DNA of 64,000 nt, from the IMG/VR virus record IMGVR_UViG_3300013947_000019, positions 1-64,000 of that record; one strand, 5' to 3'. A model generated the notes under the pieces. It did not search any database. It saw only the letters and a list, made by a program, of their open reading frames with translations, and was not told the origin of the DNA. Below, in pieces: positions 9,668 through 14,309 of the stretch (the first letter of the stretch is position 1; the number at the start of each line of letters is the position of its first letter). The translations under genes were made by a program, and so were the position numbers. This DNA is from a virus. Its lineage: Duplodnaviria; Caudoviricetes.

Positions 9668-10735
9668 TTATGTGTCAAGATTTATGGGGTCGATTGTCAT
9701 CTGGAACATGGTTTTCTTACGAGCTTCTGCATATTCCTTCTTAGTAGACATAATCACACTGATCTTATCCATATCCTTCTCGAAGTCTTTAAACTTAAAG
9801 ATAACAACAGTACGATTATTTACATCAAGGCACTGCTCACGCAAATCTTCAGGGTCCATCTCACCAAGTCCCTTATAACGTATAACACCATTCGGAATAT
9901 ACTTACGAACAGCATGCATTACATCATATAGAGTCTTATCTTTCTTATCACCAATAGTATATCCGGCAAGCGTATTGTTTACTTTCTGATACTGTTTAAA
10001 TTTAGTGACATGTTTGTGGAAGTGCTCATCTAATGCAATATTGATATAATCACCACCATTTAAATCACCATCAATAACTAGTGTCTTATCTTCAATCAAT
10101 ACAGTAATACCAGGATATCTCTTTAATATATTGGACCAATAAGATTTCTTTTGATCTTTTAACTCGCCATGATAATACCATGCAATATATTCCATAAATT
10201 TAGGATCAACACAATATCGGTTGGAAAGTTTTTCTAAGCGAGTATCATATTCGAAGTTTCTTTCGATAAATTCTCGAAGCTCTTTCTTACTGAGCACTTT
10301 TCCGTTATATGAAATAGTCTCTTTGTCGATGAATGCTTTCGTAATCTTATCGTAGAAATCCTTCTGAGATCTCACAAAGATTGACTTACCATTACCCTTA
10401 GGAATACGATATGCGGGAGGTAAGATACGACCAACCATACCTGCATCAATGAGAGGTCTGCAATGTTTAGCTAACAGACAAATCACAGAGATAGCAATAT
10501 CATCACCATCTACATCACTATCTGTCAATGCTAAAATACGAGTCATTGTAGACTTCTCTGGATCACATTTCTTACCAGGTTCAATGCCACAAATATCAAG
10601 AACATCATTGAAAGTAGATTTAATCTTTGCTACAGAATCACTATCATTATCAAAGATATTCTTAGGACGTTTAATACCATAGATCGCTTGATTATGTGCA
10701 TCTCGGCCAAGAGCTGCATTATCTGCAGCTGAATC
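9668..10735 (-). CDS. gyrB: Type IIA topoisomerase subunit B, exon 2 (TOPRIM and tail)
   Basis: Starts DSAADNA, completing EG|DSA; also LTDSDVDG, RILPPAY and RYKGLGEM. Confidence 0.9.
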   Translation of the reverse strand, partial: DSAADNAALGRDAHNQAIYGIKRPKNIFDNDSDSVAKIKSTFNDVLDICGIEPGKKCDPEKSTMTRILALTDSDVDGDDIAISVICLLAKHCRPLIDAGMVGRILPPAYRIPKGNGKSIFVRSQKDFYDKITKAFIDKETISYNGKVLSKKELREFIERNFEYDTRLEKLSNRYCVDPKFMEYIAWYYHGELKDQKKSYWSNILKRYPGITVLIEDKTLVIDGDLNGGDYINIALDEHFHKHVTKFKQYQKVNNTLAGYTIGDKKDKTLYDVMHAVRKYIPNGVIRYKGLGEMDPEDLREQCLDVNNRTVVIFKFKDFEKDMDKISVIMSTKKEYAEARKKTMFQMTIDPINLDT

Positions 10736-11862
10736 CAATGAATTTCATTCGACCATTTCTTCTAGTGTCTATCTCTCGACAGTCAACTAGTCTACCGTTT
10801 CGGTTCTCAAGAGCTTCGTTCCCTAAAACTCTGACACGTACCAATAGTGTCCCTACTCCCCTCCCAGAAGGCATGGGGATGGCCTGTACAGGTTCTTTAA
10901 TATAAGTTACTCAACAAACCAAAATTTAACACCAGATACTACATTTGATTTTAATGCAGCTTCACTCACCTTTTTAGTAAGACGTTTAATGTTGTAGTCT
11001 TTCCAATATCCAAGTTTATGAAGCAATCTAGATAAATTAGCAGGACCCTTAGCTTTTACTTCTAGTCCGCTAGGAAGTAATGCGTGAACTTCTCTACCTT
11101 TAATACCACATCTATGATATACATAATCAGATGTAATATCAAATGGATCATCAATCCGCTCAACTTTTAATTTACCTAAATATAATTTATGCACTGATGA
11201 GCACCGTATAGCTGCAGCTCTCAATGAATTTCTAGACGCATTAAGGAAATAGCCCTCTTGATGAAGTCTATCTGCAACAGCATACGCGCCTCTAGCATTA
11301 AAATCCAGATTATCAATAGTAACATGATAATCATGTAGCATAAAATCAAATGTTTTTAATCCGGTCTTAATAGCATGGATATTATTCTCTCGACTAGTTG
11401 TCCATTCTAAATTAGAAAGATCTAAATCAAGTTTATTACCATTGATATGATTTACTATAGGTCTTTCAGGATCTGGACCGACAAATGTAAGCATTAATAG
11501 TCGATGTAGTTTAACCGATTTTTGACTACCATTTTTACAAACTAATCTTAATACATAATATCCATTATCATTTATATATGGTTTTAATATTTTGCCGGTT
11601 TTAATATTACGAACTCTAGCTTTGTTGCTAATTTCATATAAATATTCAAAACCATATGCAGGTTTCCATATTTCTTCCATATCTTTACCTCCTTTCATAT
11701 AATATTAAAGTTTGTGTTGAGTATTTATTATATTAAAGCTTCCCACGAGACTGGGCTAATAAATCCTTGGCAAAGTATTAGCTTTACCCTCGTTAGCATA
11801 TCAAATTGATATACCCGTGTGGTGAACACGTAAAATAGATAAAGGAGATTTCATACGATTTT
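10736..11862 (-). mobile_element. Group I intron (1127 nt) in gyrB, with homing endonuclease
   Basis: Splits the EG|DSA motif in frame and ends in a terminal G at 10736. P4 ACGAG/CTCGT, P7 C(A)GGCCA/TGGTCG in an AAGAAATGGTCG context, and P8 CTAGT/ACTAG are present. The IGS (11841-11850) is complementary to the spliced junction. Confidence 0.88.
10907..11680 (-). CDS. Intron-encoded NUMOD4-HNH homing endonuclease
   Basis: EIWKP..GFE.LYEISN (NUMOD4); LHRL...VNHINGNKLD...NLEWTT..EN..H (HNH). Start revised to the ATG after AAAGGAGG. Confidence 0.9.
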   Translation of the reverse strand: MEEIWKPAYGFEYLYEISNKARVRNIKTGKILKPYINDNGYYVLRLVCKNGSQKSVKLHRLLMLTFVGPDPERPIVNHINGNKLDLDLSNLEWTTSRENNIHAIKTGLKTFDFMLHDYHVTIDNLDFNARGAYAVADRLHQEGYFLNASRNSLRAAAIRCSSVHKLYLGKLKVERIDDPFDITSDYVYHRCGIKGREVHALLPSGLEVKAKGPANLSRLLHKLGYWKDYNIKRLTKKVSEAALKSNVVSGVKFWFVE

Positions 11863-13164
11863 TCCTTCTACTAAAAGAAGCTCTGGGGCTACTGTATCGA
11901 GATTCTGCACAATATCTTTAAACTTATCAAGACGATCTTTGGAGAAAGTGTTAGATACATCCTTCTTACGAACTTTCTTAGATGCCATACGACCCTTTGT
12001 AACACGTTTGACGAATTCGACCATAGGATTAGTGACATTTCCTTTCGCATTACAAAGATATTCATATACTGCATCACGAACAGCAAATCGGACTTCCTGA
12101 TTGGATAACTGATTCTTTTCCTGTCCCATATAGATAGGAGAAATAACTTTGACGGTAATAAATGCACAGATACCAGCAGTCATATCAGAAGGAAGCACAT
12201 TCATTTCCTTGTCCTTACCTTTGAATTTAGGAATGACTTGCTCCTTAAAATATTTCTGGATACCGAGCTTTAGACCATCCACATGACTACCACCCATATA
12301 AGTCTTTGCACCATTTGCATAACTGATAATAAAATCATCTTTATTATCAGCATCAAGAACATCTTCTTTATATGCAAATACGATATCAATCCCAACAGGT
12401 TCCGTAGTCATTTTATCATCAGCAATCGATTTCAGATAAGTTACTTTGCGAGATTCTTTGATTCGAATAACAGGTGTGTCTGGTTTCCAAAGCTTTACAC
12501 GATCTTCAATATCCTTACCACCATACTTAAACTTTTTCAGCTCTTTCTTTCCATCCAGAACTGTATAAGTTATTTTAAGCTGAGGATAGAGATATGAAGT
12601 ATCACTGAGCTTATCGTGAAGATCTTCCCATGTCACTTCAGAAGAATCAATGATCTTAGGATCAATATGAAACTTAGAATAAGTTCCATGCTTATCAGAC
12701 TTGCCTTTTTCCTCTTTGACCATTTCACCGTCCTTAAAATAATATCTCAAGAACTTTCCTTCTCGCATAGAAGTAAACTCACAATAATCAGAAAGAAATA
12801 CGGCAGTCTTTAAACCATGACCCCAACGACCAGCAGTTGTAAGATACGCACTATTTGTTCCATTATTAAACTTACCTGATGCAGCAAGCTTAGTTAAAAC
12901 ATCAAGAAGCTTCTCAAGAGGAACACCGGACCCATCATCTGCAACGGATACTTCTTTGGTTTTAATATCGAATGTTACATCCAAATGTGATCCGTCACTA
13001 CCGTTGACGGTCAATTCATCTGTAGAGTTTGATACCAATTCAAAGCAAATATGCACAAATCCATTCCTATATATATCAGGTACATACATAGATGGATTCT
13101 TTCGAACCTTTTCTTTGTCAGACTCAATTACAATAATTGAATCTGCATCATATTTTCTTGCCAC
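11863..13164 (-). CDS. gyrB: Type IIA topoisomerase subunit B, exon 1 (GHKL ATPase and transducer)
   Basis: VRKNPSMY, ELVSNSTDE, DDGSGVP, ASGKF...GRWGHG, GGSHVDG, GQEK; ends ELLLVEG. Predicted spliced product is 789 aa. Confidence 0.92.
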
Positions 13165-14309
13165 TATAATTCCTCCCTATTGTATTTTGGAATTAAATGC
13201 ATAAATCCATCCTTATCTACAAGACGTTTATTTTCAAGATGCATCTCAAGTTCAGGATGATTTACTGTGTACACATACTCATTGAGTGAACGATGTCTGA
13301 TTAATTTTGATACTTCTGCACGTTTGCGATTATGTTTTTCTTCGAACTGAGCAAATGTTAAATATTCACCATCAGCATCTACCACATATCGATTATATCT
13401 TTTATTGTTTGATTGCTCTTTTGGTGTAGTCCATCTACAATTCCATGGAGCATATGGACCATCATTATCTATACGATCAAGAGTAAGTCCATCTTTATAA
13501 CCATTAGATATGGCCCAATTGTAGAAATTAACTAGCCCAGTATTCATTGGATCTCCTGGTTTAGATAACCATTCATCACAAACCTTGATACCTCTACCGC
13601 CATAATTTTCATAACTATTACAACTAGGACGATAACAACGTGCTTTCATTGCATTATAAATACTACTTATACGTTTTCCATCTTTTGTAGTCATAATGCC
13701 ATGAGTACGTTTAGAATCAGATTGGTAACATCCACAGCTTTGAGTATGTCCATTAGTCAGATTACCAGTTTGAACTATACATGTGTTTCCACAATCGCAT
13801 TTACAGACCCAAAGACACGCTTTATGTTTTAAATTCCTAGGTCCTTCATATAGCTTCTCCACTACTAATCTTCCAAATCGTTTACCAGTAAGATCTTTGA
13901 AATTACGTTCAGATGTCAATTTTCGATTAAGACATCCACATGACTTTGTGTTATTACGGCCAAGATTAGAGCCTATTACACTTACTATATTTCCATAATC
14001 GCACCTACACTTCCACTTAAGAAGTCCAGGCTTACTATTCTCTTTATCGATACCAAGAACAGTAAGCATATCAAATTTCTTACCAGTTAAATCTTTTATT
14101 TGACCAATCTCACGATTCTCTTTCTGGAAACACCCACAGGATTTCTTATGACCATTGATCAAATATTTTCTCTTGGTAACTGTTTCATTACCACAGTCGC
14201 ACTGACACTTACACATGATTTCTCCACTATCATCAGTGTATACATCAGTAACAACAAGACGGGTAAACCTCTTACCCATCAGTTCAGTTTTAGCCTTTGA
14301 TAAATCCAC
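13164..14309 (-). CDS. Free-standing HNH-type endonuclease with three Cys-rich DNA-binding repeats
   Basis: Three repeats of [DLxGKRFxxLxV...CxCDCGN...SCGC], then MKARC...YGGRGI.VC.EW...TLDRIDNDGPY.P.NCRW. Confidence 0.85.
   Translation of the reverse strand: MDLSKAKTELMGKRFTRLVVTDVYTDDSGEIMCKCQCDCGNETVTKRKYLINGHKKSCGCFQKENREIGQIKDLTGKKFDMLTVLGIDKENSKPGLLKWKCRCDYGNIVSVIGSNLGRNNTKSCGCLNRKLTSERNFKDLTGKRFGRLVVEKLYEGPRNLKHKACLWVCKCDCGNTCIVQTGNLTNGHTQSCGCYQSDSKRTHGIMTTKDGKRISSIYNAMKARCYRPSCNSYENYGGRGIKVCDEWLSKPGDPMNTGLVNFYNWAISNGYKDGLTLDRIDNDGPYAPWNCRWTTPKEQSNNKRYNRYVVDADGEYLTFAQFEEKHNRKRAEVSKLIRHRSLNEYVYTVNHPELEMHLENKRLVDKDGFMHLIPKYNREEL

Follow-up and report, generated by a model that had tools for sequence, protein, structure and literature searches.

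The gyrB-like gene of a gut jumbo phage, located on the minus strand of the stretch of DNA analysed here, is split in two by an intervening sequence which is probably a mobile group I intron of the td type (P7.1/P7.2, IA2-like), bearing a derived P1 cassette in which an A-U pair takes the place of the U.G wobble at the 5' splice site, and whose removal by splicing would restore the gyrB message. The stretch (hereafter the window, 64,000 nt) comprises the first 64 kb of the 259,863-bp IMG/VR virus record IMGVR_UViG_3300013947_000019, and the sequencing runs holding parts of it are labelled as pig gut, feces and wastewater metagenomes. That a group I intron lies in gyrB had been put forward previously from the sequence of the window (the original prediction), and this claim is borne out by a conserved fold with compensatory changes and by the presence of introns at the same site in relatives.

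Concerning the interrupted gene, exon 1 (11863-13164, minus strand) encodes the ATPase and transducer domains (Pfam HATPase_c_3, HATPase_c and DNA_gyraseB), is collinear with the uninterrupted 789-aa GyrB of a relative (L003; relatives are designated L and a number) and ends in LLVEG (GTA GAA GGA). Exon 2 (9668-10735, minus strand) starts with GAT TCA GCT (DSAADN) and encodes the Toprim and C-terminal domains (Pfam DNA_gyraseB_C). The intron, with its td-like (IA2-type) core, accounts for the intervening 1127 nt (10736-11862, minus strand), as deduced from alignment, covariation and versions in relatives that lack an open reading frame (ORF), and is inserted within the catalytic EGDSA motif, between its Gly (GGA) and Asp (GAT) codons. 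Since the intronless relatives L003, L012, L013, L015, L016 and L028 read LVEG|DSA, with GGT, GGA or GGC followed by GAT or GAC, this insertion site is exact. Relatives whose proteins are 90% identical may differ in having the intron: it is missing from L016 (exon 2 match at 90% protein identity), and L002 (approximately 90%) harbours a 298-nt ORF-less intron at the identical position. The ORF-less introns at this gyrB site in relatives measure 290-381 nt. A search with the exon 1 protein returned 42 clusters of approximately 430 aa and 44-97% identity, all of which end in EG followed by 0-20 residues, the exon 1 cluster alone comprising 98 member sequences. With at least 42 split protein clusters, the EG|DSA intron site thus appears to be widespread in the gyrB of this jumbo gut phage clade, in which it was previously unannotated.

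The evidence which carries this reading furthest lies at the splice junction. The six bases at the end of the exon, GAAGGA with A at -1 (11863-11868, minus strand, as are all intron elements below), form the 5' strand of P1, and the internal guide sequence (11841-11850) consists of AAUC, the P10 partner of GAUU in exon 2, followed by UCCUUU, the 3' strand of P1, in which U at 11846 pairs with A(-1). P1 thereby contains a G.U and five Watson-Crick pairs, with A-U at -1, P10 contains four Watson-Crick pairs (AAUC/GAUU), and the pairing is continuous. The intron terminates in a G (omega G) at 10736, and the terminal UUG is found in 16 of the 16 lineages in which the 3' end was read. The original prediction had read P1 and P10 in this manner, had placed an A-U pair at the cleavage site, had noted that no U lies near the junction and had recognised a single other register that keeps a terminal G, and on all four points it was correct: the nearest uridines are at -8 upstream and +5 downstream, and the alternative register yields GGA AAU UCA, i.e. 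EGNSA.

The comparison with gyrB introns of related phages which it had proposed was performed by reading 17 intron-bearing lineages (window included) at the DNA level; P1 was tabulated for 12 of these, and the five later additions were scored by eye with the same pairing. A P1 of 5-6 pairs is situated directly 5' of a conserved AUCUAYUUU in every lineage. The splice-site pair is U.G (exon GGU, guide G) in 11 lineages (L002, L010, L027, L009, L026, L024, L014, L042, L043, L044 and L045), C-G (exon GGC, guide G) in two (L018 and L025) and A-U (exon GGA, guide U) in four (the window, L046, L020 and L022). The P1 5' strand therefore covaries with the guide, whose base agrees with the third, synonymous position of the Gly codon in all 17 lineages, and one further P1 position also covaries (GAAGG/CCUUU versus GAGGG/CCCUU). 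RNAalifold, when presented with ten sequences and no hint, predicts the same P1, with the splice-site pair counted as UG:5, AU:2 and CG:1. Since the guide covaries with a synonymous codon position, it is the RNA pairing that appears to be selected, and the RNA would thus be spliced at this junction; this covariation is the strongest evidence for such selection.

The fold was derived from the alignment, with pairing statistics calculated on ten sequences and with slid 3' partners and 500 shuffles as controls. From 5' to 3' the order of elements is P1, P3, two hairpins, J3/4, P4, J4/5, P5, P6, P6a, J6/7, P7, P7.1, GUAGGG, P7.2, hairpin X, P3', P8, J8/7, P7', P9 and omega G. Paired cells amounted to 96.7%, compared to 35-50% when the 3' partners were slid, ten pairs are changed on both sides, and none of the 500 shuffles reached the observed values. 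Besides P1, omega G and the P4-P5-P6 domain, the group I features present include a P7 in which a bulged base is followed by the G-binding G-C pair and which is pseudoknotted with the tentative P3; J4/5 is rich in A, J6/7 is short and J8/7 consists largely of purines, and both P7.1 and P7.2, the IA2 feature, lie between P7 and P3'.

The 5' strand of P3 is tentatively assigned to UCUAUU (11834-11839), which pairs with GGUAGA (10791-10796) with 100% of cells paired and one-sided changes only; the corresponding strands are UCUACU/AGUAGA in L045 and UCUAUC/GAUAGA in T4 td. Three other candidates for P3 were rejected, namely CGAGGG/CUCUUG and GAGGG/UCCCC, which clash with the covarying hairpin X and P7.1, respectively, and GCUAAC/GUUUUAG, which represents four invariant pairs within a hairpin loop. 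The two hairpins between P3 and J3/4 (11798-11830), A (CGUGU/ACACG) and B (AUAUCAA/UUGAUAU), are indicated by covariation and are both predicted by RNAalifold; hairpin A exhibits changes on both sides in three of its five pairs with 74% of cells paired, and hairpin B displays double changes. The loop of hairpin A keeps a conserved ACC. P4 (CGAGG/UCUCG), J4/5 (GUAAA), the P5 hairpin (GCUAAUA/UAUUAGC) and J5/4 (CCAG) occupy 11746-11792, P4 and P5 being predicted by RNAalifold, and J3/4, J6/7 and J8/7 read UAA, GUA and AAGAAA. P5 is formed in 15 of 15 lineages despite differing sequences; P4 and P6 (GGG/CCU) are invariant, so that their support is one of consistency. A further hairpin after P5 (CCCA/UGGG) was discarded, being missing in L010 and L014. 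The P6 5' strand GGG, an internal loop and the P6a 5' strand (11728-11744), with 3' partners at 10890-10905, are identified by the covariation table and RNAalifold, and in ORF-less relatives the P6a stem is closed by a 5-nt loop.

The 5' strand of P7, C[A]GGCCA (10880-10886), pairs with UGGUCG (10750-10755) and is 100% paired; in L027 one pair has changed on both sides (C-G to U-A) and another on one side (G.U to A-U), whereby it carries, as does L044, the canonical GACUA/UAGUC. The GGCCA/UGGUC pairing with a bulged A and then a G-C pair therefore stands as originally described, although the accompanying notion of a variant core does not, as this is ordinary covariation. P7.1 (UCCCC/GGGGA), the GUAGGG motif, P7.2 (GACAC/GUGUC) and the extra hairpin X (AGAG/CUCU) extend over 10810-10879 and are based on covariation, P7.1 and X having three pairs each with changes on both sides. 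Hairpin X (10810-10832), between P7.2 and P3', possesses an invariant loop, UUUUAGGGAACGAAG, and is missing from L044 and T4 td. The P3 3' strand, P8 (CUAGU...ACUAG) and J8/7 follow (10756-10796), the motifs CGAAACGGUAGAC and GAAGAAAU of this segment aligning to CGAAACGAUAGAC and GGAGAUAU of td, and a P9 hairpin (AAUGA/UCAUU) precedes the terminal omega G (10736-10749). P5, P6a, P8 and P9 are formed in every lineage with differing sequence. In L020, L022, L024, L042, L043, L044 and L009, the last approximately 15 nt of the intron contain GGCGG, GCGGC or GCAGC, complementary to GCCGCC, GCCGC or GCUGC in exon 2, which would create a hairpin spanning the 3' splice site and covarying with the synonymous Ala codons at positions 3-4 of exon 2, whereas the tail in the window forms its own P9 instead.

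In this intron family U.G would be the ancestral state, and A-U a derived P1 cassette within an otherwise canonical family. Relative to the U.G introns, the A-U introns have GGA for GGU in the exon and CU for UG in the guide, such that both pairs flanking the ligation junction are Watson-Crick in the A-U form (A(-1)-U in P1 and G(+1')-C in P10), and A-U and U.G members do not differ in J4/5 (GUAAA), J5/4, J8/7 or P7. The G-to-U change in the guide is compensatory. The original prediction had suggested an atypical subclass of group I introns in which recognition of the splice site is altered, perhaps with the assistance of a protein; neither suggestion is sustained, as 11 of the 17 same-site lineages carry U.G with the same core and an unchanged receptor, and as three of the four A-U introns (L020, L022 and L046) have no ORF, meaning that an intron-encoded helper is not general.

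The four A-U introns share a nearly identical 5' cassette, GAAGGA|AA(A/G)AUCGUAUGAAAUC-UCCUUU, but differ elsewhere (hairpin B, P5, P6a, X and P9) and reside in gyrB backgrounds with 55-97% protein identity; between L020 and L022, helix X differs in a compensatory manner (AGAG/CUCU versus UAGG/CCUA). The window and L018 (C-G, ORF-less) are close relatives in which the 3' two-thirds of the intron are identical but one block, comprising the last 60 nt of exon 1, the P1 loop and the guide, has been exchanged; the exon base therefore moves jointly with its partner in the guide, by recombination or co-conversion. The exons of A-U carriers are under purifying selection, which speaks for retained function, the ratio of nonsynonymous to synonymous differences per site (pN/pS) between the window and L046 being 0.065 in exon 1 and 0.069 in exon 2 (at pS 0.29-0.46), and that between L020 and L022 being 0.025 in exon 2.

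From the anatomy of the element, the covariation, the lineage distribution and the selection on the exons, we infer that the RNA is spliced, and at exactly the GAAGGA|GATTCA bond. In the proposed mechanism the whole gyrB gene would be transcribed as one RNA, in which the guide UCCUUU would pair with exon GAAGGA to form P1. Guanosine would attack after A(-1), AAUC would then hold GAUU of exon 2 as P10, the terminal G (10736) would be released, and the ligated product GAA GGA|GAU UCA would encode EGDSA. Since the J4/5 wobble receptor and the core are unchanged, the site would probably be set by P1/P10 geometry and omega G rather than by the wobble. Docking of P1 is expected to be weaker because the A-U pair offers no guanine 2-amino group, and the A(+1)xC mismatch just above the site, which is present in all A-U introns, may give local flexibility; an unstable neighbour on the A(+1) side of the site has been argued to favour catalysis (PMC1891724). 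We lean towards the view that this is a natural group I lineage which splices accurately with a purine at -1 in an A-U pair and with a guide lacking the guanine for the wobble receptor. The two C-G lineages provide a precedent within the family, since no alternative register yields a sensible protein in these, and the family therefore probably splices with a Watson-Crick pair at the site.

Several findings weigh against this reading. The U.G pairing of the 5' splice site, a group I feature, is absent from this intron, where A at 11863 faces U at 11846. In the Tetrahymena ribozyme, substitution of C(-1).G22 for U.G results in approximately 80-fold faster undocking, the amino group of G22 contacting J5/4 (PMC1891724), and crystal structures, the Twort intron's among them, show this tertiary contact of the guide G amino group (PMC1891724). 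The Anabaena system requires a guide ending in G and a pyrimidine as splice site (PMC12355055), and by the rules of both systems an A-U pair is therefore expected to be a poor substrate. As the four A-U introns represent one near-identical cassette, its spread may be recent and the divergence of the exons may be partly older. None of the sequencing runs holding the stretch is on record as RNA, and the contigs of four runs contain DNA variants only, among them the ORF-less form. The placement of two hairpins between the tentative P3 and J3/4 could be matched to no described subgroup. Finally, Rfam model RF00028 (Intron_gpI) gave no match at E <= 10 to the intron region or to the ORF-less intron of L002; in the control, T4 td scored 40.3 bits, below the gathering score of 50, and we attribute the failure to the scoring of P7 as a fixed sequence (AGACUA/AUAGUC) in this model and to the extra hairpins present here.

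One more such point is the occurrence of two consecutive Gs at the 3' end (UUG|G) together with A at +1 in all four A-U introns, which would permit a shift of the register by one nucleotide: exon 1 would end in GGAA, the mismatch A(+1).C would occupy the cleavage site, just above the A-U pair, G 10735 would serve as omega G and the product would be EGNSA. This shifted register, which we consider unlikely, would present a non-Watson-Crick pair at the site, as the guide C faces A(+1), and its product occurs naturally in a relative. Type IIA enzymes near-universally contain EGDSA, yet the intronless homologues L031 (3899) and L033 (3902), approximately 50% identical in exon 1, read EGNSA and EGKSA, and protein sequence therefore cannot decide between the registers; moreover, D426N of E. 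coli GyrB, which alters the D of EGDSA, is a viable quinolone-resistance allele. What speaks for the unshifted junction is its behaviour across the family: the shift would introduce Tyr or His in most other lineages (UAU in L009, L018 and L027, CAU in L014 and CAC in L043), and only the unshifted register yields one protein throughout. In that register, furthermore, the change of guide U to C produces a perfect G-C pair with G(+1) of exon 2, and the C-G lineages illustrate that Watson-Crick pairing at the site exists in the family. Moreover, when its A is on the substrate strand, an A.C pair has an orientation opposite to that of U.G.

It is more improbable still that the A-U cassette represents an allele with defective splicing or hardly any activity, tolerated where phage gyrB is dispensable or where host gyrase complements it. 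Watson-Crick pairs at the site do impair the Tetrahymena and Anabaena ribozymes (PMC1891724, PMC12355055), and the near-identity of the cassette in four hosts would accommodate a recent spread. Against this, the cassette occurs in four phage backgrounds, the exon 1 cluster alone counts 98 members, purifying selection on exon 2 is strong between A-U carriers (pN/pS 0.025-0.07), the G-to-U guide change is itself compensatory in character, and L020 and L022 have diverged by compensatory changes in helix X. An unspliced gene encoding GyrB as two polypeptides, the N-part ending in VEGKIV and the C-part starting from TTG at 10738, is very improbable, as the original prediction had also argued from the lack of a ribosome-binding site, for although an in-frame TTG precedes exon 2 in every lineage, gene callers list products of approximately 430 and 356 aa, and the split type II topoisomerase subunits of T4 (gp39/gp60) offer a precedent, a Shine-Dalgarno-like core precedes this TTG in none of 16 lineages (compared to 26 of 41 long ORFs in the window), UUG is the conserved ribozyme 3' end, the break would fall inside the catalytic EGDSA motif, the group I fold is conserved with compensatory changes, and the guide tracks synonymous last-codon changes, which is sensible only if RNA pairing is selected. 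No excess of promoter- or terminator-like signals was detected within the intron.

The intron, spliced and mobile in the reading we favour, carries a homing endonuclease gene (10907-11680, minus strand), which is located in the P6a loop and encodes 257 aa from an ATG at 11680, preceded by a strong Shine-Dalgarno sequence, AAAGGAGGU, at 11687-11695. Its product matches Pfam NUMOD4 (7.4e-15) and HNH_3 (5.7e-11), as well as I-HmuI of phage SPO1 (PDB 1U3E; E 1.5e-12 over residues 5-102). The ORF is missing from L018, L046, L002 and one contig of metagenome run X10; the endonuclease is thus polymorphic for presence or absence in close relatives (window 10907-11731), with deletion endpoints within the P6a loop. 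The gene directly upstream of gyrB (13164-14309, minus strand) contains repeated Cys-rich units of the GKRFGRLVV type and, judging by its C-terminus (...LDRIDNDGPYAPWNCRWTT..EQSNN), resembles a free-standing HNH/AP2-type endonuclease; a related gene is also positioned upstream of the intronless gyrB of L003 (L003:1864-2712).

Megablast and blastn of the intron against 50,697 phage records produced no match, and an exact 18-mer of the J8/7-P7' region retrieved from IMG/VR one true relative and two chance matches inside unrelated genes (L006 and L007). No match was obtained by Rfam cmscan of the whole window at gathering scores; a RAGATH-1 hammerhead at 11169-11277 (plus strand), antisense within the endonuclease ORF, was dismissed as probably due to chance (25.5 bits versus a gathering score of 56.3, E 0.13). 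A covariance model of the 3' core (R1) gave as its best hit the P7-to-P7' core of T4 td (22.8 bits, E 1.7e-4, filters off), which was missed with default filters, and detected no second intron copy in the phage's own 260-kb genome. An nrdD intron had also been named in the original prediction, and Rfam applied to 42-52 kb of the window gave nothing.

The near-universal wobble docks P1 via the guanine amino group, and both annotation tools and the design of trans-splicing and circular-RNA ribozymes rely on it (guide NNG, site YNN). A swap to A-U or C-G with neither coding constraint nor receptor change would suggest that in one subgroup or more the wobble rule is less strict than assumed, and splice-site callers which require U(-1) will misplace or miss such introns. 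If the present reading is true, the 'universal' wobble would be dispensable in td-like introns, and a near-isogenic natural allelic series (U.G, C-G and A-U) would be available to measure its contribution; the gyrB family could thereby serve to tell apart what wobble geometry, the guanine amino contact and helix stability each contribute. A literature search identified no description of gyrB group I introns in phages, and the open-access literature yielded neither a natural A-U pair at this site nor a purine at -1, which does not prove that none exists.

The closest known relation is to the T4 td intron (IA2, I-TevI), with which the gyrB intron has in common the interruption of a phage gene of DNA metabolism, an endonuclease ORF in the P6a loop and the order P7, P7.1, P7.2, P3', P8, P7'. 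The two also share the motifs AUCUAU (P3), UCCC..GGGGAGUAGGG and CGAAACGNUAGAC, a purine-rich J8/7 and the J8/7-P7' arrangement, and P7.1 and the GUAGG motif are aligned to td by model R1. The td intron, however, contains a U.G splice-site pair, a P2 before P3 and a GIY-YIG endonuclease, whereas the gyrB intron has an A-U pair, two hairpins before J3/4, an extra hairpin after P7.2, P7 as GGCCA/UGGUC and an HNH endonuclease. Its 3' domain is a single short P9 hairpin, whereas td runs approximately 70 nt beyond P7'; indeed, the architecture of td, sunY and Twort includes P2 before P3 as well as P9.1/P9.2, in contrast to the gyrB intron with its lack of P2 and only a short P9. With I-HmuI of Bacillus phage SPO1 the HNH core is held in common, but the C-terminal 150 residues of the intron ORF are without a match, and the host gene and intron differ.

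As regards the splice-site pair, Hur and Waring reportedly described in 1995 two naturally occurring group I introns whose 5' splice site has C.G. The title of that paper (Nucleic Acids Res 23:4466), as cited in PMC6468297, raises coding constraint for C.G, an explanation that is inapplicable here because the Gly codon GGN is four-fold degenerate. In a set of 5292 bacterial tRNA introns, 98.5% of raw calls had U(-1) together with omega G, and 72 predicted Leu.3Cg introns of Proteobacteria had C.G (Williams 2020, bioRxiv 10.1101/2020.01.27.920355). These published introns, like L018 and L025 of the gyrB family, replace the wobble with a Watson-Crick pair in a natural intron, as is the case here, but they keep the pyrimidine at -1 and the guide G, whereas the A-U gyrB introns have a purine at -1 and a guide U and would thus, unlike the C.G introns, present no guanine amino group for the J4/5-J5/4 contact.

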